Below are positions 7,633 to 63,661 of a stretch of 64,000 nucleotides of DNA, piece by piece. The notes under the pieces were generated by a model that worked only from the letters and a program-made list of their open reading frames with translations, was not told where the DNA came from and made no database searches. The DNA lies in assembly GCA_049472315.1 (NCBI GenBank), contig JBLIRN010000003.1, forward strand, positions 7,523 to 71,522, written 5' to 3'. Position 1 is the stretch's first letter; each line of letters begins with the position of its first letter. Made by a program: the position numbers and the translations under genes. Source of the stretch: a bacterium (GTDB lineage Bacteria > SZUA-182 > DTGQ01 > JAFGSM01).

Positions 7633-8132
7633 GAAATGACTCCTTTGATATAATTCATCAATCCCCCACTCTCAATCAACTCCTTCATAAACGGTGGATA
7701 GGGGACGATCGCGTATTCTTCATCCCGGGTACGATTGATTATTTTTCCCTTTTCGACATGAACCTCCAGGGCATCGCCGGTGCGTATCCGCGCCGACGCC
7801 TGTTCGGACTCGATAATAGGCAGCCCGATGTTGATCGCGTTGCGGAAGAAGATCCGGGCAAAGCTTGCCGCAATGACGCACCCGACCTTGGCAGCCTTGA
7901 TGCACAGGGGTGCATGTTCCCGTGAAGAGCCGCACCCGAAGTTTGTTCCTCCCACCAGGATATCGCCGGGCTTCACCCGGGAGGCAAACCCGGAATCAAG
8001 GTCCTCCATGCAGTGCTGGGCCAGCTCGAGGGGGTCGGTGGTGTTCAGATAGCGCGCAGGGATGATTTCATCGGTGTTTACGTTATCGCCGTATCTCCAT
8101 GCCGTTCCCTTGATGATGCTGATATCAACCAT
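7629..8132 (-). CDS. leuD: 3-isopropylmalate dehydratase small subunit
   Basis: [20 protein letters not shown] and [15 protein letters not shown]. Confidence 0.96.
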
Positions 8133-9402
8133 TACTATGAATCTCCTCGGGCCCGCCTATCCTGCCGAGAATTGCGGAAGCGGCCGCCACAGCAGGATTC
8201 GCCAGGTAGACCTCGCTCTTCGGATGTCCCATCCGTCCGACAAAATTCCGGTTGGTGGTGGCGATGGCCCGTTCCCCTTCGGCCAGTACCCCCATGTGAC
8301 CTCCAAGACAGGGTCCGCATGTTGGCGGCGAGATCACTGCACCTGCATCCAGGAAAACGGCCAGGAGCCCTTCCTGCATCGCCTGCTTGTATATCGCCTG
8401 GGTTGCGGGGATGACGATGAGACGCACCCCGGGGTGGACCCGTTCCCCCTTGAGCACCCCTGCGGCGATCCTCAGGTCTTCGATCCTCCCGTTGGTACAG
8501 GAACCGATCACCGACTGGTCGATCACCACCGTTCCCACCTCGCTGATGGGCCTTGTATTCGAGGGCAGATGGGGGAATGCCACCTGGGGCTCCAGGTCAT
8601 CAACGTTCCATTCGTAGACCTCCTTGCAGGGGGCGTCCTGATCGCCGTACACGGGCTCGAAGGGGCGAACCCCCCGTTCCCTGCAATAATCGATGGCCTT
8701 CCGGTCCGGTGAGATGATGCCGTTTTTGGCCCCCGCCTCTATGGCCATGTTACACATGGTGAATCGGTTGTCCATAGAGAGCCCGTCGATGACCGGTCCG
8801 GTGAATTCCATGCTCATGTACCGGGCGCCGTCCACACCGATCCTGCCGATGGTATACAGGATGAGATCCTTGCCCCCCACCCATGCCCCGAGCTTCCCGG
8901 TATAGACAAATCTGAGGGTTTCGGGAACCTTGAACCAGATCTCCCCGGTAATCATTGCAGCCGCAAGGTCCGTGCTGCCCACGCCCGTGGCGAACGCCCC
9001 CAGCGCCCCGTAGGTACAGGTATGCGAATCCGCCCCACTGATAAGCTCACCGGGCAGGATGAGCCCCTGCTCCGGGATCAGGGCGTGTTCGATGCCCACC
9101 TCTCCCACCTCGAAATAGTACCGTATAGTGTGTTTGCGGGCAAACTCGCGGACCTGGCGTGCCAGCTGGGCGGACTTGATGTCCTTGTTCGGGGTGGAAT
9201 GATCGGGCACCAGGTAGACCCTCTCCGGGTCGAACACCCGGGTTGCCCCGATACGTTCGAACTCGTTGATCGCAAGGGGCGCGGTGATGTCGTTTCCCAG
9301 GCAGCAATCGATTCGCGGCTTGATGAATTCCCCTGGTCGGACGAATTCCCTGCCCGTATGGCGGGCGAGAATCCTTTGGCTTATGGTCATGGCGGTGGAC
9401 AT
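8125..9402 (-). CDS. leuC: 3-isopropylmalate dehydratase large subunit
   Basis: [24 protein letters not shown] and [10 protein letters not shown]. Confidence 0.96.
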
Positions 9403-9423
9403 CGTTTCGGTTCCTTGAAGGAT

Positions 9424-10968
9424 TCAGAGGGATGGGGCGTTTTTCGCGCCCTTCTTCTCGTTGCGGAAGACCGCCTTGTTGAATGCATTGAGGTAGGCCT
9501 TTGCGCTCGCTACGATGACGTCGGTGGACACCCCTCTTCCCGTGAGGACCTGATCACCGATTTGCACCGAGACATTGACCTCCCCCATGGCATCCTTCCC
9601 CCCTGCCACTGCATTGATGGAATAGGACACGAGGGTTCCCGTCATATTCGTCAGGCGGTCGATGGTCTTATACGTCGCATCCACCGGGCCGTCGCCGCAG
9701 GCGGAATCCTGGAGTGTCTCCCCGTTTCGTTTCAACTTTATGGTTGCCGTGGGGATGGTGTGGTCACCGCTGGTGATATGGATATAATCCAGGGCGAAGA
9801 TCTCCGGAACGGCATGGATCTCATCCTCCACCAGGGCCTGGAGCTCTTCATCAAACACCTCTTTCTTCTTGTCCGCCAGCTCCTTGAATCGCTGAAAGGC
9901 CTTGTTCAGCTCATCCGTGGAAAGGTCATAGCCCAGTTCGGCCAGGCGGGCGGAGAAGGCATGCCTTCCGGAATGCTTCCCCAGGACCATCCGGCTCTGC
10001 TTCAATCCGATCGACTCGGGGGTCATGATCTCGTAAGTGGTCTTTTCCTTGAGCACCCCGTCCTGGTGAATCCCGGATTCATGGGCAAAGGCGTTTTCGC
10101 CCACAATGGCCTTGTTCCTCTGCACCGCTATCCCGGTGAGGTGGCTTACCATCCTGCTGGTCTTATATATCTCCTCGGTGCGGATATCGGTATAGTTGCT
10201 GAAATGGTCCTGCCTGGTCCGGACGGCCATGACGATCTCTTCCAGGGCCGCGTTTCCTGCCCGCTCCCCCAGGCCGTTCATGGTGCATTCCACCTGACGC
10301 ACGCCGTTTTCAACAGCGGCAAGTGAATTGGCCACGGCGAGTCCCAGGTCGTTGTGGCAATGGCAGCTCAGGATCGCCTTATCAACGTTGGGCACCCTCT
10401 CGCGGATCAGCCTGATCAGCCCTCCGAATTCGGGGGGGGTGGCATATCCCACGGTATCGGGGATATTGATGGTGGAGGCCCCGGCATTGATGGCCAGTTC
10501 CACGATCCGGCACAGGAAGTCGCGGTCGGAGCGAAAGGCATCCTCCGCGGAAAACTCCACGTCAGGGCACAGGGACCGCGCATAGCTTACCGCATCCTTG
10601 GCCATGGCCAGTACCTCTTCCCTGTCCTTTTTGAGCTTGTACTTCATATGGATGTCCGAGGTTGCGATAAAGGTATGGATGCGCGGCCGTCGAGCATGCT
10701 TCACCGCCTCCCATGCCCGTTCGATATCCTCCCGGGTTGAACGGGCAAGCCCACAAATGGCAGGCCCCTCCACCTCCTGGGCAACCCGTTTGACCGCCTC
10801 GAAGTCACCCGGTGAGGCAATGGGAAAGCCCGCCTCTATGACATCCACATTCAGCTTTGCCAGTTGTCTGGCTATCTGCAGTTTTTCGGTTATATTCAGA
10901 CTCGCCCCGGGGGATTGTTCGCCGTCCCTGAGGGTCGTGTCAAAGATGATGATTCTGTCTCTGCTCAC
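9424..10968 (-). CDS. leuA: 2-isopropylmalate synthase
   Basis: [19 protein letters not shown] and GERAGNA; GTG start at 10968 after AAGGAG. Confidence 0.96.
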
Positions 10969-11722
10969 CTTTTTCTCCTTTCGGAATCCTTGATCGGTAT
11001 CGTTTCGCCACTGCATGAGGATTGAGTCCCTTCGCATGCACGAGGAGGATCTCCGCCGGCCCGGAGACGACGTAGCCAAGAAAGATGAGGAAAAACATCA
11101 CCCGGGGCTCGGCAGCCACCACGAGGAGCAGCAACATGATCATGACCAGGGCGTGAAAGGGTTTTTTCTCTTTCAGATTGATCTGTTTCAGGCTTCGATA
11201 CCGGATGGTGCTCACCATAAGGAACGCGAGCACGTAAGCAAGCCCTGCGATCACAACGGGCTTGAGGTCCAGGGGCACCGCGAGCAGCTGACTGAGTATG
11301 ATAAAGGACGCCAGTGTCCCGGCCGCAGCGGGTATGGGGAGCCCGGTGAAGCTCTTGCTTTCCGATGTGGTCACCTGGCAGTTGAACCGGGCCAGCCTCA
11401 ATGCCCCGCACACCACAAAGAGGAACGAGGCAAGCCAGCCGATCCGGCCGAATGGCCTCAGTGCCCACATATAGATCAGAACGCCCGGCGCCATGCCGAA
11501 GGAGATCAGGTCGGCAAGCGAATCGAATTCAACGCCGAACCTGGTGCAGGAATTGGTAAGCCGCGCCACTCTCCCGTCCAGGGCATCGAAGATACCGGCC
11601 ACCAGGATGGCGATCGATGCAGCTTGAAAATGGTGGTTCAGTGCAGAGATGATCGCGTAGAACCCGCAGAAGATGTTGCCCAGGGTAAAGATGCTGGGCA
11701 GTATGTAAATCCCCTTTTTCAT
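10940..11722 (-). CDS. pssA: CDP-diacylglycerol--serine O-phosphatidyltransferase
   Basis: DALDGRVAR...[10 protein letters not shown] motif and LRLARFN. Confidence 0.95.
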
Positions 11723-50710: not shown

Positions 50711-53410
50711 TCAGTCCACTCGCACCTTGAATTTGAGATCAGCGTATGGGGCGGGCGGGGTGCTGCTCCCCTGGAAGGTGCCCTTGGGCGAAACCCTGAT
50801 ATGGGAGACATTCCCGTCAAATCCGTGGGCATCCGGGGAGGGCACATAGGTGTATGTTGCACCCCCGTCGCCGGAGAAGTCGATATCATCCGTGGTGCTC
50901 TCCAGGCTGGTAAACGTATAGGTCAGGCCGCTTGGGGCCGTCCCGTCCAGAAAAAGGAGAGGCCCCGAGCCGGGGACGTCAATATCATTCACAAACAGGG
51001 ATGCATGTTCGGGGATGGGGTCTATGATCACCATCGTGTCGTCGTCGACAGGGCATATCCCCTGATTGGTGATGGTAATCGTATAGAGCATGGTTGCGCC
51101 GGGGATCGCCTTGGGATTGACATTTTCGTTGTACGGATCCGAAAGGGTGTGGACGCTTTTCATGACCAGGAGCTCCGGAGCGCCGACAAGGAACGTGCAG
51201 ACATATTCGTCGTTCACCAGGCCTTCTGTCCCTTCCATGGCCCTGATGATCGCCTGCCAGGTCCCGGTGGGCCATGAAGGCAGTTCGTATTGATATTCAT
51301 ACACTGCGTCCGATCCCCCTGAATCGAAAACCTCCGGTATGGGGGCGTCGGCAATGACGATGAAATTCTCCGGATCGATTATGGTGACGGTGGCGCCGCT
51401 TATATCGAAGCTTCCGAAGGGATCACCCACCAGTGCCCTGATGTGCACTGGGGAGCCGGGGAGGAAACATTGCGGAGCACCCCCTCCGGGATAGGGTGCA
51501 TCATATGCCCCTGCGGTATGGATATCGATGACCGTGGCGGCATTCAGGTCAACCCGTGAGGTGGCCCCTTCATAGGAGGGATACACATATACGGAATAGT
51601 AATAGGAAGAGGATTCGTTGGTCACGGTCAAGGTGATCTGCGAGCCCGGCAGGAGGGTGACTTCGGAGGGCAGGGATACATTGAAGACGATTTCGGTGGT
51701 CCCCCACATGCTTACGGTCCGGGTGACCGGGTCCCCGATGGGACCGGATGTGGCACCGGTTGAGGCAAGCGCCACGGTGAGGGTCCGGGAGCTTCCATAG
51801 TAATTACGGCGTATCCAGAGCCTCACCGGATGAAGCCCCGCGGCGAGGGTGAGCGGGGCTGCGGTCGCCGGCGTCATCTCCCATTGAACTGACCCCCCGT
51901 TTCCTGCAATGTACACCGATCCCGGAGACCCCTGGGGTGGGGTCCTGGAAAGCTCAAGCCCCGGGCTTCCATACAGATACAGCGGCTTATTGGCGGCGTC
52001 AAGGCCGAATACCGCGGTGGGGTCGCTGCTGGTGTTGTTGCCGGCAATATTATCGAAGGTGGGGCTGGAGACCGTTGCCGCATTCGTGACCTGCGGAACA
52101 GCCGAAGATTCAACGGAAACGGTCAGTGTTATGGGAGGCAATCCCTCACCTTCGGGCAGCGGGCCGGGATGCGACCAGGTGATGACCGGCAATGCGGATG
52201 TGTCCGCCGTCCATCCGGTGCCCGAGCTTGTAACATAATCAAGACCCGCGGGCAGGGCATCGCTCACCATAATGGTGCCCTCCGCATCATGGGGACCGTT
52301 GTTGCTGACGATAATGGTATACGTGCCGTTTTCCCCCACGGTGAAACTCCCCGCATGATTCTTGGTAATCGCAAGATCCGCCACCGGGGTGTTGGTCACC
52401 GAGACGATCTCCGCGCTCAGGAGCACCATGTCCTCACCCGAGCGGTATATGGTGGTGGCCGAGGTGTCGCCTGCATGCAGATAGGCGCTGATATCGTATG
52501 TGTCGATATCCACGCCGTAGCTGTTGTCCACACCCAGGCTGTTTATCGTGGAGTTGAACTGGTTGTGGATGGGATTGAGGCCGTCCGTGAGCAGATTCCC
52601 ATTGAGGATGAGGCTCTCCGTATAGCCGTACAAGGGATTTGAATTCTCCTCGTCCCCCTCCCAGCTTATGTGTGCATGCTTCCCCTCTATGGGCAGATCC
52701 GGGATGCGGAAGTTGCCCGGGGTCAGGATGATCTGGTTGCCCCAGTAGTACTGGAATCCGTCAAACAGGTTGATGACCCGGAAGTACTCCCCGGGATGCT
52801 CAAACACGACCACCAGTGACCAGCCCGCCACAACGCCCTGACTGTTGCAATGGGGGGAGCCGGTGTTGACACTCAGGTCTCCGAAGGAATAGGTCCCGTT
52901 CCCTTTTGCGGCAACGATCGCGGTGACATCGGCAAAACCGCAGAAATAGTCATAGTTTGTCCCTGAGAAGCGGAATCTCTCGGTGAAGGTGCGATCTGCG
53001 GTCAGGCTATACGATTCAAAGGTTATGTCATAATCGGGGGTTCGCTGCGTTGATCCCCTCCGGTCGGCGAATGATCCCGCCCAGTAAAGATATGCCGCCC
53101 TGATCACCGCGCCGGAAGGTATACCGAAAAGGGGGGCAGAGCCGTGGTCTGTCACTGCGCAGGCATTGACCGGATTGGGCTGTGTCCTCAATGTCCCCCC
53201 GGTGCAGGTGAAATCTATATTCCCGGCAAAGCTTCGGTACAATGTCACCGGTGTTCCCGCATTCACCGGGCCTGTGCCCGTCAGAAAGAGGAATAAAAAA
53301 AGAAAAAGGGGGATGCTCGTGCATGCGATAAGGCCCTTCCGTATACATATTCTCCTCCGAACGATCCGGATCATTACAGGGTCATCTCCCTGTGAAGGCA
53401 TTCCCCTCAT
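50711..53410 (-). CDS. DUF11-domain surface protein, putative tip adhesin
   Basis: Hydrophobic signal; N-terminal AYLYWAG/GWSLVVV domain; a complete internal DUF11-like domain (DLAITK...VTNAATV); a truncated C-terminal one. Start at 53410 (ATGA overlap) or 53374. Confidence 0.8.
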   Translation of the reverse strand: MRGMPSQGDDPVMIRIVRRRICIRKGLIACTSIPLFLFLFLFLTGTGPVNAGTPVTLYRSFAGNIDFTCTGGTLRTQPNPVNACAVTDHGSAPLFGIPSGAVIRAAYLYWAGSFADRRGSTQRTPDYDITFESYSLTADRTFTERFRFSGTNYDYFCGFADVTAIVAAKGNGTYSFGDLSVNTGSPHCNSQGVVAGWSLVVVFEHPGEYFRVINLFDGFQYYWGNQIILTPGNFRIPDLPIEGKHAHISWEGDEENSNPLYGYTESLILNGNLLTDGLNPIHNQFNSTINSLGVDNSYGVDIDTYDISAYLHAGDTSATTIYRSGEDMVLLSAEIVSVTNTPVADLAITKNHAGSFTVGENGTYTIIVSNNGPHDAEGTIMVSDALPAGLDYVTSSGTGWTADTSALPVITWSHPGPLPEGEGLPPITLTVSVESSAVPQVTNAATVSSPTFDNIAGNNTSSDPTAVFGLDAANKPLYLYGSPGLELSRTPPQGSPGSVYIAGNGGSVQWEMTPATAAPLTLAAGLHPVRLWIRRNYYGSSRTLTVALASTGATSGPIGDPVTRTVSMWGTTEIVFNVSLPSEVTLLPGSQITLTVTNESSSYYYSVYVYPSYEGATSRVDLNAATVIDIHTAGAYDAPYPGGGAPQCFLPGSPVHIRALVGDPFGSFDISGATVTIIDPENFIVIADAPIPEVFDSGGSDAVYEYQYELPSWPTGTWQAIIRAMEGTEGLVNDEYVCTFLVGAPELLVMKSVHTLSDPYNENVNPKAIPGATMLYTITITNQGICPVDDDTMVIIDPIPEHASLFVNDIDVPGSGPLLFLDGTAPSGLTYTFTSLESTTDDIDFSGDGGATYTYVPSPDAHGFDGNVSHIRVSPKGTFQGSSTPPAPYADLKFKVRVD

Positions 53411-56400
53411 GAGAAGAGCATCCTCACCAGCCTCGTGACATCCCGGCCGCTTGTCTGGTCTATCTTGAAACGGAAGCGCAGATAGGGACCCTGCGCCGTG
53501 TAATTCGCGTGTGAAAAGTCCCTGTCGGTGAAGCCCGAGATATTGTATCCGATGCTGACCCAGAGATTTTTCGCCGCACACATGCCGATGGAAGGGCCAT
53601 AGGAGTAATCAAGCTGCCGGGCATTCCATGAGTGCAGGATATTCACCCGCACCCCCGCATCCACCCGTTTGGTAATATCATAACGCCCCTCCATGCCGAT
53701 AAGGTCGGTATATCCCCTGTACTTGTCGTCATCCATGGTCTCCAGGACATACTTTGCCCCATACTGAAGGGAGAGCTGGGTCCTTCCGCGGGTGTAATTC
53801 GCATTCAGGTGATTCACGATCCTCCAACTGTCCAGGTCCGTATCGTCATCCCTGCGGCTGTCAACGAGGAAGTCCAGACGGTCCAGGATGATCCAGTCCG
53901 TTTGCGTCGGCCGATGGGCGAGGCAGAGCCGGATATCGCCCGTGCTGTCCTCTGCACCCGTGGCATGTTCGGTATGGAATACCTGTGCGCTGAAGGACAG
54001 GCCGAGGCCATGGCGGGGCTCGCCCAGGATGCCGGTGAACACCCCCCATTTGTGGCTGGTATCTGAAATGAGCCGTTCCACTCGGTTGGTCCATGACCAC
54101 TTCTGCCTTGTATAGGTGGCGCCCAGGGAGAGGGAGGTAAAATCATCGCCCCCGCCGGATGCCGGGGATACATTGAGATTCAGGGGGGTGTTCCCAGAAT
54201 CTTCGATAGTCCTCGTCTGGTCAAGGCTTCCGTCCACCGCCCATTGCTCGGTCACCTGCCAGGTCTGGCGCAACCCGAGATTGGCAAAGGTCCTGGGACC
54301 GTTCTCATTGATATCCTGCTGCATGGAGGTCTGCACCTCCCCCCCCGACCACGGGCTGGTCTTCAGACCGATACGGGACATCTGTGTATCCTCTGCCCTT
54401 CCATCGGTTATCTCATGTGTCGCAAAGAGGGTGGTATCCGCAGCAATATGATAATCCGCGCCCAGCATGGTGCGGGTGGGGAAATCCCCGCTGTCGTTAT
54501 CCCCACCCACCGATTGGGCATGCCCCAGCGATAGACTCAAACGCTCGCCGAACGCATCATACCCGGCGCCTGCCAAGAGCTGATTGGATCTGTTCACCCT
54601 GCCGTCTCCCAGTTCATCCGCTGCACCCCTCATGCCGGCCTTGATGGAATAGGCTCCGTTCCGGTATGTTCCCTCCCCCTCCAGAACGTCGCGTACCGCC
54701 CCTGTGGCGCGGAAGGTGTACCGGTATGCCTGTCCGGAGAGGGTGATCCGTTCATTCACTATACGGGATGCCTCCGCACCCGCCTTCTGTGTTCCTGTCT
54801 CGCTCCCGTTCTGCTGGCCGAGGCCGAAGCCGTCCTGTTCCTCGCGGATATATATGGATCCGTGCCCCTGATCCGACTCATGGGTGACCTCGGCGATGTA
54901 GGCATCCCCTTCCCTCTTTGTCCCGGCAAAGTCGGAGCTGGAGTGCGCCACCTCCGCCTTGATGCTGTTCCCGTGGGAAAGGTCATAGGTCATATCCACG
55001 CCATAGAGGTTCCCCTGGCCACCGATTCCGCCCTCGTGGATATGGGTCGCTCCCAGCTCAAGCCCGCGGTCCATGAGCCTTACCGCACCCCTGCCTCCGT
55101 AATTCGCCGATCGATCCCCATTGTCATGGGATTCGTAATCCACCACGATGAAAACGGGGTTGAACTGCTGATCCTTGCTCATGACAGGCTGCTTGAAATA
55201 GAGGGAGCCGGTCTCGTAATCGATGGCATAATCGATATATCTGGTGAGCTGCTCAGCGGAGATGATCCTTTCACTGTGAAAACGGTCGCGCGTCTGGATG
55301 GCCACCTTCTCGGAGCCTTGGACGATATTGCTCCTGGAGAGGTGATAGAGGCCCGAGGTGCCGTTTCCCCGTATCTCATCCTTGATGAATGCCTGGTTGG
55401 TCTCGCTCACGAATGCGCTGAAGGTGTAATATTCCGACTGCCCTTCGGTCTTGAACCCGGTGAAGGTCCGGCTATAGCGGGAAAGCTCGGTGACCGTAAT
55501 GCCGGTATCGTAATCCCCGAACAGGGCATAGAACTGCCCCCGCTCAATCTTGAGATACAGCTTCTCCGTGCTTGCCGCCTCGTGTGCCTGGCTGGTGGAA
55601 TCCCCATACAGGCCGTAGTAGGCATCAGGGTCGATGTCCTGGTGGAGGTTTTTATCATCCCTGTGCGTATCCCTCTCACTGTCATAGGCGATGGTCATCA
55701 GCCATTTCCCCTTGATCTGTCCCTTGGCGAAGAATGCCACCCCGCCATCGGTGATCATCCCCTCCTCCATGCCGGTCTCATCCGCCCCTTCCATATGATC
55801 GCGTACGGTGGTGTATCCGATGCCCCCCTGTGCAAGCCCCACCAGTATCCATTCCCTGGCAGCGGGCCTTAGCCATGTCCTGATCTCCCGCTCGCCCCCT
55901 GCAAGATTCAGCCGGATGACGACCTCACCGGTGGAGGAGGTGGGTTGAAGCCTCAGCAGCGCAATCCCATCCCTGCCCACCGTATAGCGCGGGCGATATT
56001 TGTTCATGCCGGACAACTGAAAATTCTGGTACGCCTCCGACTCCTGCAACGCGGCATAGGGGGGATCCACGGAAAACTCGCCGATGACCCCCTGCCGTGC
56101 CGGATAGCCATATTTATCGGTGAGGCGGATGGCGATCACCGGAGGGGTCTTCCCGTCGGCACAGGGGACAGAATCCTCCTCCCGGATCTCCACATCGACA
56201 GGGATATCGGAATAATGGATGGAACGGGTAATGCGACCCGTCTCCTCTCCTTGGCTGTTCCGAAGCACCGCATCGAAGAGGTTGTCACCCTCATGCAGGT
56301 CGATCCCCCGCCACACGCTGAGCGCTGCGGTGCCTAATTTGTTCTTGATCAGGGTGTCGAAATTCAGGGGGTCCACCTCCTGCCCGTTAAGGAGCAGGCT

Positions 56401-58920
56401 GATCCGCTCGGATGAATGATGTTTTATCATTACCTTTATGCTTGGGATGGAGGGGAGATACCCCTCTGCAGGAAAGAGCCATTCAAACCCGGACGTGGCG
56501 CTCTCCAGCCATGCATCGTCAAAGGAGGTCTTTCCCTCGGTTACGTCCTGCCCGGTCTGTGCTGCCCCATTTCCCTTCCCAGGAGCAGCACCCTGTGTCC
56601 TGGCCTTCATGAGTTCGCTATTCCCGGCCTGGAAATGTGCATCTATAACTGCAACGGGTGTGCGCCGGTTGCGCTGTGCCTGCGTATCAAAAAGCATCAC
56701 CCCCCGTACCGATCCCTGTTCCCCCTTTGCCTCGGATAGGCAGGCATTCACCCTCAGGGTCTTCGCCCATTCCGCCTGCGTATCCCCGAGGCGAACGGTG
56801 AGGGCGCCATCGGCAATCTCCGGGAGAATCGGCGCTGCATCGAGGAGGGCGCTCCCTTCCTCATAGGCGACACCATCCGGAAGCATCAGCACGATACGGA
56901 CATTCTGCAGCGGTACACCCGTGCCCCCCATATGAATCAGATACCCTCTTGTTTCTCCATCGTCAAGGGGCTCAGCGTCAATCGACATGAATGCCTCGCC
57001 CTGCGGCGGCCTTTTCGGACAGACCATGAAGTCCGCCCGCCACATTGCACCTGCCTGGAGATCAATGAACTGGGAGAAGGCATTCTCGGCGAACCGGTCG
57101 TGCGCACCCTCCTTGGGCCGATATCCCTCCGGGATGCTCTCGACATCCATTTGCACCACATGTGCGCCCGGGTCAACCCCTTCAAAGTGATACATCCCGT
57201 TTTTGTCGGTGATCACCGAAGAGCCGTCTTCAAGATATATCCGCACACCGGGAAGCACGTCTGCGGCCGGAGCCTTTCCCGTGTCCTCCCTGTCAGCGTT
57301 TTCTTTTTGCATAATTCCGCCGTCCGCACATCCCTCGATGCGCACCTGCCCGAGGATGATGCAGGTCGAGCGCATGAACTCATGGCGGACCTTCACCGTA
57401 ACTGCACCTATATTGGAATTTTCGCCCCCTATCCCCGTTGCCCATGCCAGGTTCTCCACATCCCCGATCCTGGCGCCTGCAGCCACCTCAGCCACATAGC
57501 TCACACTCACCTCGGAACCGGCCGGGAGGTCCCCGAGGGCAAAGGTCATGGTGCGTCCGTCCGGGGCAATGAGGGGGGCTTCCCCATGCTTTCCGTTTAT
57601 TCTGGCTGAATCCCTTTGATAGCGAAATCCCTTGGGGAGAAGGTCCTTGACCTCCACACCCGGAACGGTGGCGGCAGCGCTCGGATTCTCCACACTCACC
57701 GTGAACTGGATGAAGTCCCCGTGCGAAACCGTGTGCTTGGAAGCGGTTTTTCTGACATAAAGGGCGGATGCGGCAGGGTCGAGGGGGATATCGATATGCA
57801 CGACAGGACCCGGATTCACCACGAATATTCCGCCGAGCGATCCTGTGTCTATGGCAAAGGGCGCACCGGGAAGCGACTGGATGATACTCGCGGATACGGT
57901 GGAGGGAAAGAAATAATCCGCAGGCGGGGTGATCTCGAACCGGTAGTTGCCGGGGGCTATGAAGGGGAACCTGAATTTGCCCGGCTCAAAGACATACGCC
58001 CTGCCGCTGCTGTCCTTGACGCTTTCCCCCGAGATGACGGTGGAAGGGAATACGCTCACCCCGTCATCCCCGAAGACCGCGGCAGGGAGGCCGGTGTCCG
58101 CATCGATACAGGTGATGGTCGCCCCGTTCACCGGAAGCCCGGTCATGCTGTCAAAGATGATCCCGTATGGATCCACCAGCGCAGCGGATGCATCCGTATC
58201 CGTCCCATCCCATTGGTCGGAGTATGTCGCTGCGACCCTGACATCCTCGGCCACAGAGAGGAGGCCGTCATACATGACAGCGGAAATACTGCTGGTCTGG
58301 ACATAGCCGACAAAAATCCCCGTGTTTTCCCCGGATTCCGTGAGGCGAAGGACCTCCTTCTCACCCAGAGAATCAATGCTGATGGTCACCAGGACCGTAT
58401 CGCGGTGGTCAGGATCGACATCCTGATCCTGATCCCTGAGCACCAGGAAGAGGGGCTCCCCCTTGTGGTATATGCCTCTTTGGGTAAGGGGAACCGGTCC
58501 GCTCATGTCAAGGGGTGTGCCGAATATGGTTGGGGCTCCCAGAGGGCGGAACTCCCCGCTGCCGCCGGAATCATATTCCGTTGCTGCGATGCTGAAGTAT
58601 TCCCCGCCGGACGCCTGGGGCGCATACTGCCGGAAGCTCAGCTCCGAGGGGGTGCGGAACTCGATCTCCATGGCCACCGTATTGGACTGGGCCATGAGCG
58701 CAGCCTCATCGCCGATCCGGTAGGATGCACTAGCCGTATTGAGGACCTTCCTGGGAAAACGGGTCGAATCAGCCCGCAGATTGGATGCAAGAAGGAGAAG
58801 GCAAAGGCAAAGGAGTATGAGGAGCATCGGAGGATTCCGAAGCCACCACACCGCTATCCGCACCCGAAAAGAACATGCCAGGGACATGCCGGAAAGCAGG
58901 GGTGAAAAATCTCTCTTCAT
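53407..58920 (-). CDS. Giant outer-membrane protein with DUF11/SdrD-like domains and a C-terminal beta-barrel
   Basis: Signal peptide; DUF11-like YVRKTAS...DLLP...VENLA; GVRIYLEDG..TDKNGMYHF; about 800 aa of amphipathic beta strands ending YLRFRFKID. Confidence 0.82.
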   Translation of the reverse strand: MKRDFSPLLSGMSLACSFRVRIAVWWLRNPPMLLILLCLCLLLLASNLRADSTRFPRKVLNTASASYRIGDEAALMAQSNTVAMEIEFRTPSELSFRQYAPQASGGEYFSIAATEYDSGGSGEFRPLGAPTIFGTPLDMSGPVPLTQRGIYHKGEPLFLVLRDQDQDVDPDHRDTVLVTISIDSLGEKEVLRLTESGENTGIFVGYVQTSSISAVMYDGLLSVAEDVRVAATYSDQWDGTDTDASAALVDPYGIIFDSMTGLPVNGATITCIDADTGLPAAVFGDDGVSVFPSTVISGESVKDSSGRAYVFEPGKFRFPFIAPGNYRFEITPPADYFFPSTVSASIIQSLPGAPFAIDTGSLGGIFVVNPGPVVHIDIPLDPAASALYVRKTASKHTVSHGDFIQFTVSVENPSAAATVPGVEVKDLLPKGFRYQRDSARINGKHGEAPLIAPDGRTMTFALGDLPAGSEVSVSYVAEVAAGARIGDVENLAWATGIGGENSNIGAVTVKVRHEFMRSTCIILGQVRIEGCADGGIMQKENADREDTGKAPAADVLPGVRIYLEDGSSVITDKNGMYHFEGVDPGAHVVQMDVESIPEGYRPKEGAHDRFAENAFSQFIDLQAGAMWRADFMVCPKRPPQGEAFMSIDAEPLDDGETRGYLIHMGGTGVPLQNVRIVLMLPDGVAYEEGSALLDAAPILPEIADGALTVRLGDTQAEWAKTLRVNACLSEAKGEQGSVRGVMLFDTQAQRNRRTPVAVIDAHFQAGNSELMKARTQGAAPGKGNGAAQTGQDVTEGKTSFDDAWLESATSGFEWLFPAEGYLPSIPSIKVMIKHHSSERISLLLNGQEVDPLNFDTLIKNKLGTAALSVWRGIDLHEGDNLFDAVLRNSQGEETGRITRSIHYSDIPVDVEIREEDSVPCADGKTPPVIAIRLTDKYGYPARQGVIGEFSVDPPYAALQESEAYQNFQLSGMNKYRPRYTVGRDGIALLRLQPTSSTGEVVIRLNLAGGEREIRTWLRPAAREWILVGLAQGGIGYTTVRDHMEGADETGMEEGMITDGGVAFFAKGQIKGKWLMTIAYDSERDTHRDDKNLHQDIDPDAYYGLYGDSTSQAHEAASTEKLYLKIERGQFYALFGDYDTGITVTELSRYSRTFTGFKTEGQSEYYTFSAFVSETNQAFIKDEIRGNGTSGLYHLSRSNIVQGSEKVAIQTRDRFHSERIISAEQLTRYIDYAIDYETGSLYFKQPVMSKDQQFNPVFIVVDYESHDNGDRSANYGGRGAVRLMDRGLELGATHIHEGGIGGQGNLYGVDMTYDLSHGNSIKAEVAHSSSDFAGTKREGDAYIAEVTHESDQGHGSIYIREEQDGFGLGQQNGSETGTQKAGAEASRIVNERITLSGQAYRYTFRATGAVRDVLEGEGTYRNGAYSIKAGMRGAADELGDGRVNRSNQLLAGAGYDAFGERLSLSLGHAQSVGGDNDSGDFPTRTMLGADYHIAADTTLFATHEITDGRAEDTQMSRIGLKTSPWSGGEVQTSMQQDINENGPRTFANLGLRQTWQVTEQWAVDGSLDQTRTIEDSGNTPLNLNVSPASGGGDDFTSLSLGATYTRQKWSWTNRVERLISDTSHKWGVFTGILGEPRHGLGLSFSAQVFHTEHATGAEDSTGDIRLCLAHRPTQTDWIILDRLDFLVDSRRDDDTDLDSWRIVNHLNANYTRGRTQLSLQYGAKYVLETMDDDKYRGYTDLIGMEGRYDITKRVDAGVRVNILHSWNARQLDYSYGPSIGMCAAKNLWVSIGYNISGFTDRDFSHANYTAQGPYLRFRFKIDQTSGRDVTRLVRMLFS

Positions 58921-59184
58921 GATACTCCAGGGAAGCTCCCATCCTGTTTAATTCTTATTTAATCGACTGTCTCACATATTCACTAATCCATAGGGCTCCT
59001 GTCCCTTTGCTTGTATGCACCGCCACTGTCTGTGCAGACATACATACATGGATATATGCCGCAGGTCTGAGTATATGCAATCAAAACCCGCATACCTTCA
59101 TCCCTTCCGCGAACAGCAATCGACATTGTCATAGGGGATTACTGCAGGCATGTTTTTCAGCGCAGGACCCAATGTGGGGGAATT

Positions 59185-60330
59185 CTACTGCACGATGACC
59201 CTGAACTTGACCGTGGCGGTTTCCCCGGCAGCCAGGTCTATCCCGGTAACAGTAACCGTATTTGCAGCGGTAACGCCAAAATCAGCCTCATCAGTATCAT
59301 CAGCGTTTGTCAGCGCTGTCTCAGTTTCCGAATAAAGGTTCGGTGCTTTCACCATTATGCCCTTGTTCGGTAATGTACCATAGCAATTGGGATCAAAGGC
59401 GATTGTCCCGGTCGTGATTTCAGAATTCAGGCTGTCCGATACCGTTATGCCGGTTGCCGTCGCTGCCCCTGCTGCATTCGAAACGGTTATGAGATATTCG
59501 ACAACAGCGCCTGGAATGCGCTTAGGATTCGATGTGCCATTAATCGGATCAGATTTCACTGTCGACTCTTTGGTAACGGTTAGCACCGATGAAACACACT
59601 TGTAATCATCCAGAGATGAGTATTGCCCGTCAGGCGATATTCCATCTATCGACCCCTGCCCATCTGCAAAAACAACTTGCACAACATCTGGGTCATCAAG
59701 GTCACCGGAAGTGTTCAATGTTACACTACCCTTGCTGCCGGGAGATCCGCCGTCATGTGTGGTTGCTGTGAGGTGATAGGATGCATATTGGCCGTTCGTG
59801 GCGCTCAATGGCGCATCCGCCACGATAAAAACGTAAATATTCACATCCGCAGCCAGTTCATCGATGAAGGTGGCGTTATCGGTTCCCGCTTCATAGATGC
59901 CGTTGCCGTTTACATCAACACGGATTTTTACCGAGGTCATGTCGAAAGCATCTTTTGTTTCATCTCCAAACGCGGTTTCACCCCCTGTATCAACCGTATT
60001 TGCATCCAGATGGTAATCCTGGACCGTATTGCCGGTATTTGTCACCAGGAAGGTCAATACGTATCCGGAGCCTCCAGGGGTTATCGACACAGGACTTAGA
60101 TCGTCGGTCGTAACGGTCAGGTCTACCTTGTTGTCTACTACGAAGGTCGCCGCTGAGCTCGTTATGGGCGTCTGAGGTATGGTATTGACCGAATAATCGA
60201 TGCTAGCGCTGTTAGAGATGATGGTTCCAGAAGCGGTCCCGGCCGCATAGACCACCTGCGTCACGCCAAGAAGAAGGGCGCCTGTCAGCACGAAAATAAT
60301 TGCCATGCACAGCAAATCCTTGGTTTTCAC
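59185..60330 (-). CDS. DUF11-type pilin-like subunit (candidate major subunit)
   Basis: GTG start with GGAGG SD; signal peptide; AGTASGTIISNSASIDY N-terminus; C-terminal VTKES...IPGAVVEY...VKFRVIVQ. Confidence 0.8.
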   Translation of the reverse strand: MKTKDLLCMAIIFVLTGALLLGVTQVVYAAGTASGTIISNSASIDYSVNTIPQTPITSSAATFVVDNKVDLTVTTDDLSPVSITPGGSGYVLTFLVTNTGNTVQDYHLDANTVDTGGETAFGDETKDAFDMTSVKIRVDVNGNGIYEAGTDNATFIDELAADVNIYVFIVADAPLSATNGQYASYHLTATTHDGGSPGSKGSVTLNTSGDLDDPDVVQVVFADGQGSIDGISPDGQYSSLDDYKCVSSVLTVTKESTVKSDPINGTSNPKRIPGAVVEYLITVSNAAGAATATGITVSDSLNSEITTGTIAFDPNCYGTLPNKGIMVKAPNLYSETETALTNADDTDEADFGVTAANTVTVTGIDLAAGETATVKFRVIVQ

Positions 60331-60433
60331 TGCAATCCTCCATTGTTTAGATACATATCAAGAATTTGTGTTGCCATGTATATTGTATGCATCATGGCAT
60401 CTCAAAGCGTCTCAAGGTATCATATCCCTTTTT

Positions 60434-60934
60434 CTATTCCAGTTGGGCGAGGTAGGACACCTGGCCTGTTTGACCCGGCTCCACGGCCTGCGTGAGCGCC
60501 CAGCGTATATGTGTATACTCGGAGGCCACCGCCACCCGCTCCTTATCCTCCTCATCCTTCACCTTGAGATTCTCGGGGGAATCGAAGACCTTGCCGCCGT
60601 CAATGGAAAAGGTGATGGACGCGCCATCTCCCAGGGCAGTTCCCCCCTTGTAGATCATGTGCTCCGGGATGGGGTTGTTGATGACGATATCGTTCACGGT
60701 CTCGTTTCCGACAACGGTGTAAAAAATCGTATAGATCACCGTGTCGCCGGGCACCACCTTGGATGCCTCCACCCGCTGTATCTCCTTTTCTCCCTTTTCA
60801 TTGACAATCTCGATCTCCCTTTCGGCAATGCACTTCAGCTCGATATGCCCTTTCTCCTGCGCGATTGCCGGGTAATTCAGGGCGAATGCAAGGAAAATTA
60901 CAGGCAGCACCATGCGGGTACATATCCTTTTCAT
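60434..60934 (-). CDS. Single-domain DUF11-like exported protein (candidate chaperone/cap)
   Basis: Signal peptide (AIA-Q); PGDTVIYTI, NNPIP and HIRW...PGQTGQVSY. Confidence 0.78.
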   Translation of the reverse strand: MKRICTRMVLPVIFLAFALNYPAIAQEKGHIELKCIAEREIEIVNEKGEKEIQRVEASKVVPGDTVIYTIFYTVVGNETVNDIVINNPIPEHMIYKGGTALGDGASITFSIDGGKVFDSPENLKVKDEEDKERVAVASEYTHIRWALTQAVEPGQTGQVSYLAQLE

Positions 60935-60962
60935 TGCTCCTCTCCCTCCATTGTATTGTTCA

Positions 60963-61955
60963 TTAATCAATAGTGACCTTAAAAGAGATGGTTTGTGTCT
61001 CAGATGCGCTGGTCAGCTCCCCCAGCTTAACCGTAACCGTGTTCGGTTTGGTTACCCCGACATCACCTGCATCTTCATCCTCTTCGTCAGAAAGTGGCGC
61101 TGTGTTCAATTTCAGTGTGCCCGCCACATATTCTGTCGCCGCTGGTATGGGATCTTCGATAATGACATTTTTGGCTGTTCCTGAACCGGTCACGGTCACG
61201 ACAATGGAATAGGTGATGGTTGCCCCCGGAACAGGCCTATCCGTTTCGAATGGGTCGAGTATCTGTGCAGATTTCACAATGCTCACGATAACACCGGACA
61301 CAAGATATGTACCGGTGGCGTTATCAGTCCCTCCGGAGAAACCGATGACCGCATCCGTCCCTCCCTGGCCATCACCCTCGAAGATTTCCCCCGCACCTGT
61401 CCCGGTCTTGGATGTGACGGTCAGCCTGCTGTCTCCTGTTTCGCCGTCATTGGGATCCAACGGGATATTGTTGAGGACGAAGACGGTGACATTGGCATCC
61501 GCCGCAATGGAAGGATCATTGGTCCCCACCTGGTACTGGGTTTCACCTGCATCGTAGACGCCGTTCTCATTATCATCAAAGAAGATATTTACCAGGGTCG
61601 GGTCGAAGTCATCGCCCGTGATGGTGCTGAGGGCGGAGAGGGTGAAGCCTTCCGGGCCGTTACCCGTATTGGTTACGAGAAAGGTGAGCACCCGGGATGT
61701 GGCGCCCGGGGTCACGACCACTGCAGACGCGTCCTCCCATGTAACATCGACATTGATAAGCTCATCAACGGTAAGGGTGTATGTATTGCTATCCTTGGTC
61801 AGCCCGGTTACCGTGCCGACGGTATAGGTGGCCGTTGCCTTGTTGCTTATCGGGGTCCCGGCCAGTGTACCGACAGCCAGGGCGGGCGGCGCTGCTGCAG
61901 AGAAAAGGAATAACGCGGTACAGGTGAGCAGTATGCAGTATGTCGTGAATCTCAT
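60963..61955 (-). CDS. DUF11-type pilin-like subunit
   Basis: Signal peptide (ALA-V); GTLAGTPISNKATATY N-terminus; C-terminal IVKSA...PGATITY...EDPIP...ISFKVTID. Confidence 0.8.
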   Translation of the reverse strand: MRFTTYCILLTCTALFLFSAAAPPALAVGTLAGTPISNKATATYTVGTVTGLTKDSNTYTLTVDELINVDVTWEDASAVVVTPGATSRVLTFLVTNTGNGPEGFTLSALSTITGDDFDPTLVNIFFDDNENGVYDAGETQYQVGTNDPSIAADANVTVFVLNNIPLDPNDGETGDSRLTVTSKTGTGAGEIFEGDGQGGTDAVIGFSGGTDNATGTYLVSGVIVSIVKSAQILDPFETDRPVPGATITYSIVVTVTGSGTAKNVIIEDPIPAATEYVAGTLKLNTAPLSDEEDEDAGDVGVTKPNTVTVKLGELTSASETQTISFKVTID

Positions 61956-62047: not shown

Positions 62048-62055
62048 TACAGATT

Positions 62056-62422: not shown

Positions 62423-63661
62423 ATGAACGAACAGGAAAAGATAGAGCTCATTACCCAGATAAGCCTTGATATCAACAAGGTGAAGGACCTCGACATCCTC
62501 CTCGAGCGAATACTGACCAATGTCAGAAAATTCTTTAATGCGGATGCAGGCTCTATCTATCTCAAACAGGGTGACAAATTGAAATTCAGCTACACCCAGA
62601 ATGACACGCTCGCCACGCGTATGGGACCCAACAAAAAACTCCTCTATACCACCTTTTCCATACCGATCGACAATGATTCCATTGCGGGGTATGTCGCCAG
62701 GAATCAGCAGATCCTGAACATCCCTGATGTATATGTCCTGAGTGGTTCGGAGGCGTATACCTTTGATGAGAATTTCGATCGGGTATCGGATTACAGGACC
62801 ACCTCCGTCCTTGCCGTGCCCATGACCGACCAGCGTGGCGAGGTACTCGGTGTCTTGCAGATCATCAATGCAAAGGATGAGAAAGGGAGGGTAATCCCCT
62901 TTGCGCGTTCCAGCGAGGACATGATAGGGCACTTTGCCACGAGTGTTGCCCTTGCCGTGGAGCGTGCACAGGTTACACGGGACCTCATTCTTCGGATGAC
63001 AAGCATGGCCGAGTTGCGCGATCCCGATGAAACCGGCGCACATGTCAACAGGGTCGCTTCGTATGCGGTGGTCCTCTTTGAGGGCTGGGGATTGAGAAAC
63101 GGCCTTTCTCATGCCGAGATCGACGGCAGGAAGGATATGTTGAGGATGGCTGCCATGTTGCATGACGTCGGTAAGGTGGCGGTGAGTGATGTCATCCTCA
63201 AGAAACCCGGGCGCCTGACCTCAAAAGAATACGACATAATCAAGAGCCATACCTATTTGGGCGCAAGGCTTTTCACCGGCATGCGATCGGAACTCGATGA
63301 GGTGGCTGCCGAGGTGGCCCTCAACCACCATGAGCGCTGGGATGGCACGGGATATCCGGGCCATATCGACCTTCTTACCGGTAAACCCCTCCCCGGATTC
63401 TCAGGGCCGGGGAACAGGCCATTGCCCAAAAAGGAAGATGATATACCCCTCTTCGGAAGGATCGTTGCGGTTGCCGATGTCTACGACGCCCTCTCTTCAC
63501 GCAGGTCATACAAGGAGCCCTGGGGTGAGGATCGGGTGATCGAGGAGATGTTCGACAATGCAGGAAGGCAGTTCGATCCGGAATTGATCAAGGTCTTTTT
63601 TTCCTACATCGATGTTCTGAGGTTTTTTGCTAATTACTATCCTGATGTGTCAAGGGTCTGA
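62423..63661 (+). CDS. GAF + HD-GYP cyclic di-nucleotide phosphodiesterase
   Basis: GAF (SIAGYVA, YRTTSVLAVPM, GVLQIIN); HDVGK, HHERWDGTGYP and VADVYDAL..RRSYK. Confidence 0.92.
   Translation: MNEQEKIELITQISLDINKVKDLDILLERILTNVRKFFNADAGSIYLKQGDKLKFSYTQNDTLATRMGPNKKLLYTTFSIPIDNDSIAGYVARNQQILNIPDVYVLSGSEAYTFDENFDRVSDYRTTSVLAVPMTDQRGEVLGVLQIINAKDEKGRVIPFARSSEDMIGHFATSVALAVERAQVTRDLILRMTSMAELRDPDETGAHVNRVASYAVVLFEGWGLRNGLSHAEIDGRKDMLRMAAMLHDVGKVAVSDVILKKPGRLTSKEYDIIKSHTYLGARLFTGMRSELDEVAAEVALNHHERWDGTGYPGHIDLLTGKPLPGFSGPGNRPLPKKEDDIPLFGRIVAVADVYDALSSRRSYKEPWGEDRVIEEMFDNAGRQFDPELIKVFFSYIDVLRFFANYYPDVSRV

Follow-up and report, generated by a model that had tools for sequence, protein, structure and literature searches.

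A minus-strand operon at positions 50711-61955 of a 64,000-nucleotide stretch of bacterial DNA (hereafter the window; assembly GCA_049472315.1, contig JBLIRN010000003.1, positions 7,523 to 71,522) encodes five proteins, P1 to P5, that are predicted to build a surface fibre. Its pilin subunits would be joined to one another by an intermolecular Lys-Asn isopeptide bond, a reading drawn from sequences and structure models to which we give a probability of about 0.65. Four observations carry it: the pilins P1 and P3 end in a truncated acceptor domain, the residues of the bond are conserved in related loci, the parts of the system are polar, and two copies of P3 are modelled head to tail. An earlier note on positions 59185-61955 had proposed that the Lys, Asp and Asn of a pilin-type isopeptide domain are split between two chains and act without a sortase; the operon extends beyond that segment, and the computational tests of the note's claims all came out in its favour, which supports the bond as a prediction.

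Acceptor domain and donor hairpin

All features of the operon lie on the minus strand. P1 (60963..61955, 330 amino acids) has, after its signal peptide, a donor hairpin at the N terminus, an immunoglobulin (Ig)-like domain in the middle and an acceptor at the C terminus, and P3 (59185..60330, 381 amino acids) is the second pilin. The acceptors belong to DUF11, a family recently renamed CLIPPER. Its crystal structure 9IFR contains an intramolecular Lys715-Asn806 isopeptide with Asp748 nearby, and in CnaA-like folds, which are sandwiches of nine strands, the bond links the first strand with the penultimate one, as given in the available part of PMC12617251. The 9IFR residue assignment was taken from the table in that paper because phmmer gave no direct mapping from the complete DUF11 domain of P5 (nothing at E<=0.01 against Protein Data Bank [PDB] sequences).

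We aligned a profile of the pilin family (86 sequences) with a profile of complete domains (49 DUF11 domains from P4- and P5-type proteins of related loci) using hhalign. Mature P3 residues 220-352 were matched to columns 4-98 of the 136 (probability 94%, E 1.4e-7); the Lys and Asp positions of the two profiles coincided, and the pilin ended at column 98, before the Asn strand. In the complete domains of these loci, a short linker leads on from that region to the Asn strand, after which comes a last strand, and the internal complete DUF11 domains of P4 and P5 possess their own Asn. All pilins and tip proteins of 80 related loci reach their C terminus immediately after the strand-7 motif. These acceptors lack the intramolecular arrangement of CLIPPER, in which the penultimate strand supplies the isopeptide Asn to its own contiguous domain, and the Asn sits in the N-terminal hairpin. 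By alignment and model, the fold of the pilin acceptor is CnaA/Ig-like. The P3 acceptor superposed on the RrgA Jo.In complex 5mkc_B (VIA Z score 7.0; root mean square deviation [rmsd] 3.2 Å over 103 residues), and searches with whole P3 returned generic multi-Ig matches only (Foldseek TMq at most 0.36; VIA best Z 9.2, rmsd 11 Å).

The P3 acceptor (59188..59589, mature residues 220-353) carries Lys254 (mature 226, codon 59569-59571) and Asp299 (mature 271, codon 59434-59436). The P1 acceptor (60966..61298) likewise ends after strand 7, with Lys at codon 61272-61274 and Asp at codon 61152-61154, and the acceptor of the tip adhesin P5 (50714..51184) has Lys at codon 51158-51160 and Asp at codon 51020-51022. 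The six Lys and Asp motifs that the earlier note had quoted are real and in frame: VTKES (59563-59577) and VSDSL (59428-59442) in P3, IVKSA (61266-61280) and IEDPIP (61143-61160) in P1, and VMKSV (51152-51166) and IIDPIP (51011-51028) in P5, the last two about 8 kb outside the segment to which the note was attached.

Mature P1 and P3 begin with a conserved Asn-bearing stretch followed by a second short strand, which together form a hairpin. It occupies the first 42 mature residues of P1 (61752..61877; Asn codon 61842-61844) and mature residues 1-42 of P3 (60121..60246; Asn40 of the precursor, Asn12 of the mature protein, codon 60211-60213). A donor-type hairpin also follows the signal peptide of P4 (58645..58767; Asn61, codon 58738-58740). 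A hairpin profile built from 57 pilin sequences, with no P4 sequence included, gave three matches only in the host genome: P3 (E 7.9e-18), P1 (E 7.7e-17) and the P4 N terminus at 58672-58746 (E 0.0275). The pilin profile matched P3, P1 and the P5 acceptor only. The host genome tally is three donors and three reactive acceptors, all within one operon. The (I/L)xNxA pattern claimed for every donor holds in P1 and P3, directly after signal peptide cleavage, and P4 carries the motif with Val in place of Ile/Leu two residues before Asn61. The proposed division of the domain between chains is supported by the truncation, by the polarity of the parts and by the dimer model, with one correction: the donor is a two-strand hairpin and not a single strand. 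Placement of the hairpins on complete and truncated domains by MAFFT fragment alignment was unreliable, and its result was not used.

Conservation in related loci

A pattern scan of one genome per species (185,579 species) gave 302 stretches, 283 of them encoding a relative, and 80 loci were kept. Open reading frames (ORFs) of these loci were sorted by BLAST against the six proteins of the window (P1 to P5 and the downstream P6), and residues were counted at the three triad positions. Before the counts, we dropped ORFs of at least 480 amino acids (over-extended or tip-type) and those whose BLAST match started after query residue 60; for the P1 class, ORFs with a match ending before query residue 280 were dropped as well. 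P3-type proteins had Lys in 76/76, Asp in 75/76 (the miss is a gap) and Asn in 75/76. P1-type proteins had Lys and Asp in 49/49 each and Asn in 38/49. Mean column identity in the family is 42 to 43%, against a near-invariant triad, and on these alignments the pattern is far beyond chance. The conservation of Lys, Asp and Asn in homologues, named in the earlier note as a check, is therefore present in the pilins.

Eleven of the 49 P1-type donors carry another residue at the Asn position (Ser in five, Thr in two, and Gly, Ala, Lys and a gap in one each). These are the proteins of loci L022, L028, L032, L036, L044, L053, L063, L064 and L080, together with two misaligned rows; their acceptors retain Lys and Asp, and Gln occupies the next position in most of those listed. 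The P1 joint may be non-covalent in these lineages, and not every joint of the fibre need be covalent.

Homologues of P3 numbered 567 at E<=1e-3 among 8000 scored. Cluster representatives of the family totalled 5045 at E<=1e-3, of which 2884 passed E<=1e-10 and 1348 passed E<=1e-30. Each of the 80 loci contains P3, by which the loci were fetched, and P2 and P4 stand alongside it wherever the contig reaches; P3 is the universal and presumably major subunit. Many diderm phyla share the gene order P1-P2-P3-P4, flanked on one side or the other by a tip gene; it was seen in Gammaproteobacteria, Alphaproteobacteria, Myxococcota, Desulfobacterales, Nitrospirota, Campylobacterota, Zixibacteria, Eisenbacteria, Krumholzibacteria, Lentisphaerales, Spirochaetales and Acidobacteriota. 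The locus also occurs in cultured strains, among them Sphingorhabdus sp. Alg239-R122 (L041) and Marinobacterium profundum PAMC 27536 (L073). Tip genes vary in position and kind, and several fully flanked loci have no tip gene within 10 kb. In one locus from Campylobacterota (L025), two further ORFs downstream of the barrel gene (locus positions 8045-9445 and 9455-11377) contain an internal acceptor-like stretch; both proteins and the pilin of that locus have a Cys a few residues before the C terminus, and the locus may be a lineage variant with a disulfide.

Tip, proposed terminator and P2 proteins

Tip-type proteins were defined as the 23 that remained of 34 matches of at least 450 amino acids once 5 internal matches and 6 over-extended ORFs of pilins had been set aside. 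They have Lys in 23/23 and Asp in 22/23, the one miss being a P3-type acceptor aligned out of register. All 23 end after strand 7, and their N termini are diverse (DUF3344 and others) and free of a donor motif. A search for longer homologues recovered five proteins, all of tip type by length and coverage, and no tandem fusions. In the window this type is represented by P5 (50711..53410, about 899 amino acids), which has DUF3344 (Pfam, 35.7 bits), one complete DUF11 (PF01345, 73.3 bits), a C-terminal acceptor and no donor hairpin.

P4 (53407..58920, 1837 amino acids) has the opposite equipment: a donor-type hairpin, Ig-like domains and a giant C-terminal beta-barrel. The Asn motif stands right after the signal peptide in 66 of 68 P4-type ORFs, as counted by a pattern search that favours Asn-bearing matches, and both misses are gene fragments. 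The one DUF11 domain that Pfam recognises in P4 (57433-57762, residues 387-496; PF01345, 43.2 bits) is complete with its own Asn. When the pilin profile was aligned by hhalign with the N-terminal 469 residues of P4, the DUF11 core alone was matched (P 0.029). In every locus of sufficient length, P4 is found downstream of P3. With acceptor-only tips and a donor-only P4, the parts suit a polar head-to-tail chain.

P2 (60434..60934, about 166 amino acids), which the earlier note did not mention, is a small secreted DUF11-like protein (TIGR01451, 25 bits against a cut-off of 24). It is truncated after strand 7, at the same point as the pilin acceptors, and has Asn at the Asp position (INNPIP, 60665-60682; codon 60674-60676). 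Among its 75 homologues, Lys is found in 24 and Asp in 10 (Asn in 55), with both Lys and Asp in 2. The P2 family has its own conserved motif of His-Ile-Arg-Trp type near the C terminus, and its gene lies between the pilin genes in every locus where the contig permits. P2 shares the truncated fold and yet rarely has both residues, so the fold itself needs neither. We suggest P2 as a candidate chaperone or cap that would bind donor hairpins without reacting with them.

Dimer model and alternatives

Two copies of mature P3 were modelled with ESMFold2 and our own alignment. The dimer scored 0.76, 0.77 and 0.77, against 0.00 for the highest of three controls. Of proteins with solved structures, 20 of 30 one-chain pairs and 1 of 23 single chains attained the mark set for such scores, rates that are only rough here because our own alignment was used. 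Between runs, contact agreement was at least 98%, and the predicted local distance difference test score (pLDDT) of the partner was at least 92. The interface is one-way: copy 2 contributes its residues 2-40, and copy 1 receives them with residues 219-282 and 346-353. Recall of a known structure is unlikely, since the pilin family has no solved relative by sequence. Among the pairs with the least predicted error, Lys226 and Asp271 of copy 1 both contact residue 14 of copy 2, which lies two past Asn12 and therefore on the same strand face; Asn12 is itself in the interface list. In the predicted dimer, Lys and Asp thus stand next to the Asn strand of the partner, with residue 14 and not Asn12 as their listed contact.

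A natural fusion, P0121 (696 amino acids), contains two pilin units that are not separated by a signal peptide. Strand 7 of its first acceptor ends at residue 367 and its second Asn is residue 378, which places the second hairpin about 7 residues after strand 7, in the canonical domain order and at a normal DUF11 linker length. Two Pfam models of isopeptide domains align across the junction, below threshold (E 0.014 and 0.018). The fusion is a hint of cross-chain docking.

Several points weigh against an intermolecular bond. The Lys-Asn pair is absent among the 25 least-error pairs listed for the dimer, a model given without distances. Aligned by hhalign on complete DUF11, the hairpin profile placed its residues 9-18 on columns 106-115, Asn on Asn; this register is the expected one, and the match is weak and by itself insignificant (P 0.042, probability 1.2%). 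No DUF11 was found by Pfam in 50-residue hairpin fragments of P3, P1 and P4, and P3 has no Pfam or NCBIfam match above cut-off. P0121 is a single sequence on 2 contigs and is compatible with self-complementation as well. The Asn-less P1-type donors and the bias of the P4 motif search belong to the same side.

The main rival is a circularly permuted CLIPPER domain, in which the hairpin folds back onto the acceptor of the chain it belongs to and the Lys-Asn bond stays within that chain, fastening both ends of a monomeric surface protein and leaving a fibre that is non-covalent or no fibre at all. The conserved triad could serve such a bond equally well. An AlphaFold2 model of the mature P3 monomer is confident throughout, N-terminal strands included (pLDDT 96.5, predicted template modelling score [pTM] 0.86; first ten residues, pLDDT 88), so the hairpin may also dock on its own chain. 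Discontinuous CnaA-like isopeptide domains are known as well (GBS104, 3TXA, residues 137-211 and 587-717; available part of PMC12617251). Against this, tip proteins keep Lys and Asp although they have no hairpin, P4-type proteins keep the hairpin although the DUF11 recognised in P4 is complete, and the two-copy model chose the open head-to-tail joint. We consider an own-chain bond unlikely.

A second alternative keeps hairpin complementation between subunits and drops the bond, with Lys, Asp and Asn kept for packing or hydrogen bonds. Chaperone-usher and TasA systems show, as general background, that strand complementation by itself makes very stable fibres, and the Asn is missing from those 11 P1-type donors. 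Oligomers of BsaA are stable in sodium dodecyl sulfate even without the bond (available part of PMC11580942). The fold, however, dispenses with these residues in P2-type domains, and bond-less DUF11 domains exist in which the residues are not universal to the family (available part of PMC12617251). A triad that is near-invariant in pilins, tips and P4 donors therefore speaks for chemistry rather than packing, and purely non-covalent joints appear improbable to us.

That only the P4 hairpin and the P5 acceptor react, tying the adhesin to the outer-membrane protein beside self-complemented accessory P1 and P3, seems very improbable: a donor-only and an acceptor-only protein could pair directly, and loci without a nearby tip gene leave the stoichiometry unfixed, but P3 occurs in every locus with P2 and P4 accompanying it, tip genes are variable, the P3 donor and acceptor residues are themselves kept (Asn 75/76, Lys 76/76), and P3 is modelled head to tail with itself.

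Proposed assembly

Under the intermolecular reading, the operon would build a surface fibre of an outer-membrane bacterium by what may be called split-CLIPPER polymerisation. P1 and P3 would each end in a CLIPPER (CnaA-like) domain that lacks its last two strands and retains the first-strand Lys and the catalytic Asp, and the missing two strands, including the strand of the isopeptide Asn, would be the hairpin at the mature N terminus of each pilin. The hairpin of one subunit would insert into the unfinished domain of the neighbouring, more distal subunit, so that the joint becomes a complete CLIPPER domain in which the three triad residues meet, and the isopeptide would form spontaneously, with loss of ammonia and without a sortase. 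P5, with an acceptor only, would be the distal tip, and the pilins, with donor and acceptor, would form the shaft, whatever the order of P1 and P3 within it. P4, with a donor and no open acceptor, would be proximal, where it would terminate the chain and tie the fibre covalently to its own barrel, a barrel that probably also passes subunits. P2 may bind donor hairpins non-reactively, either in the periplasm or where an end of the fibre is free. The fibre could grow from its base, with subunits passing the barrel in the manner of chaperone-usher pili, or else by addition at the tip.

P4, the proposed translocon and covalent anchor, has a barrel (53467..55158) that in an AlphaFold2 model is formed by a single chain and has about 32 long antiparallel strands (model residues 456-1019). 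That model, of P4 residues 800-1837 (50 sequences; pLDDT 80.6, pTM 0.71), shows two Ig-like domains and then the barrel. Usher barrels have 24 strands and SprA has 36; the strand number of P4 exceeds the former and is nearer the latter. Its fold matches generic outer-membrane barrels, namely BtuB (Z 14.3), SprA of the type IX secretion system translocon (Z 13.2 over 411 residues) and, as one among many such barrels, the FimD usher (Z 12.3, rmsd 14.2 Å over 361 residues); no specific structural relative emerged from the fold searches. The P4 C terminus has no sequence relative in the PDB by phmmer and no Pfam family, and the Atlas neighbours of P4 are clusters named 'outer membrane protein' without a Pfam family.

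A wider proposal is tentative and, in our estimate, falls short of even odds: that these operons represent an undescribed and widespread class of diderm pilus. The fibre would be the stalk of a fibrillar adhesin, cut inside every second domain, with self-welding CLIPPER domains as joints, P4 as pore and covalent anchor or terminator, P2 as decoy chaperone, and many natural, mutually specific Tag/Catcher pairs.

Operon and genome context

The start of P1 was set at 61955 rather than at an upstream ATG at 62048; the P1 homologue in the most closely related locus (L001) is likewise 330 amino acids long, and the BLAST alignment spans residues 1-330. P1 scores above the cut-offs of both DUF11 (PF01345; 26.6 bits, cut-off 24.6) and TIGR01451 (44 bits, cut-off 24). 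The start of P5 was fixed by its L001 homologue and by the overlap of the P4 stop and P5 start codons as ATGA at 53407-53410, which suggests translational coupling of barrel protein and tip adhesin. Single-codon coordinates and the feature coordinates of P4 and P5 were derived by hand from translations and motif positions. Downstream of P5 lies P6 (49745..50335, 196 amino acids), a secreted Pro/Leu/Trp-rich protein with no Pfam match, conserved in one related locus only, L001. A scan for promoters and terminators did no better than shuffled sequence (12 against 9.7 ± 2.8; 16 against 10.4 ± 2.7). A divergent gene upstream of the operon (62423-63661, plus strand) encodes a protein with GAF (59 bits) and HD-GYP-type (HD_5, 83 bits) domains, which could be a cyclic-di-GMP-linked regulator of the fibre.

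The host genome encodes Omp85 proteins, indicating an outer membrane. The sortase family PF04203 had no match in this genome (3.05 Mb, 97.6% complete), while the control matched in three Gram-positive genomes, and P1, P3 and P5 end directly after the last acceptor strand with no LPXTG sorting signal; the sortase independence put forward in the earlier note agrees with this. Pfam scans of P1 to P6 gave no PapD-like chaperone or usher family at E<=0.1, and those of the operon proteins gave no TasA-like (camelysin-type) family.

Comparison with known systems

The CLIPPER domain of 9IFR belongs to the same domain family and has the same triad, with Lys on strand 1, the Asp, and Asn on the penultimate strand; as described in the available part of PMC12617251, its triad lies within one contiguous single-chain domain, whereas here the Asn hairpin is at the N terminus of the same and of other proteins. 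Closest in principle is BsaA of Clostridium perfringens (TasA family), for which 'donor-strand exchange and lock' has been reported, with N35, K74 and E56 split between subunits and loss of oligomers in triad mutants (PMC11580942, available part). Both systems have an N-terminal donor with Asn, a recipient with Lys and an acidic catalyst, and a sortase-free, autocatalytic link between subunits (predicted in our case). BsaA differs in its TasA-like fold, Glu catalyst, Gram-positive host, single donor strand and SipW processing, and the same part of that paper describes no outer-membrane component.

The archaeal thread protein Saci_0406 also combines donor-strand complementation with a proposed inter-subunit isopeptide in an organism that lacks sortase; there the bond links Asn57 of subunit n with the N-terminal alpha-amine of subunit n+2. 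As far as the available part of PMC9715654 goes, the thread lacks a Lys-Asp-Asn triad, its fold is unrelated to the present one and its archaeal host has no outer membrane. Phage capsids of the HK97 type are cited in PMC12617251 (available part) as autocatalytic isopeptide precedents. The split-triad principle is thus already published, in BsaA, archaeal threads and HK97-type capsids; within the parts of these sources available, none of the three uses a CnaA/CLIPPER domain, an outer membrane or a donor-bearing barrel protein.

Chaperone-usher pili (type 1 and P) share with these operons their logic and polarity, with an acceptor-only tip adhesin and an N-terminal extension that completes the incomplete Ig fold of the previous subunit (in our case as predicted by the dimer model), and their operons likewise place a barrel gene between pilin and adhesin genes and encode a small periplasmic Ig-like protein. 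The differences are the lack of a PapD-type or usher match in the present proteins, a barrel of about 32 strands that carries a donor hairpin, a P2 that resembles an acceptor and not a strand donor, and joints that are predicted to be covalent. Sortase-assembled Gram-positive pili resemble the proposed fibre in their CnaA/CnaB pilin domains, Lys-Asn chemistry and covalent polymer with a tip adhesin; there, however, sortase joins the threonine of LPXTG to a pilin-motif lysine, whereas the present system has neither sortase nor sorting signal and belongs to a bacterium with an outer membrane. In SpyTag/SpyCatcher and Jo/In (RrgA, PDB 5mkc), a small piece with one reactive residue also docks and ligates spontaneously; those are intramolecular domains cut in the laboratory, whereas here the cut would be natural and serve polymerisation. 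No description of this diderm family was found in the full-text literature searched, a coverage that leaves subscription journals and supplements outside.

Significance

In textbooks, covalent pili are Gram-positive and made by sortases, and Gram-negative pili are held together non-covalently. A 2026 review still ascribes covalent pilus cross-linking to sortases in monoderms (PMC13721041, available part). If the intermolecular bond is real, the self-welding diderm pilus would be an additional class of surface fibre, and an example of a fibre covalently linked to an outer-membrane barrel. The pilin family is large and spread over many phyla, and in it an established chemistry and an already published principle would meet in proteins that are as yet undescribed. 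It would also show how a tandem-repeat adhesin stalk becomes a polymer through a shifted domain boundary, and its paired hairpins and acceptors, of which this genome alone has three each, are candidate natural protein-ligation tags.

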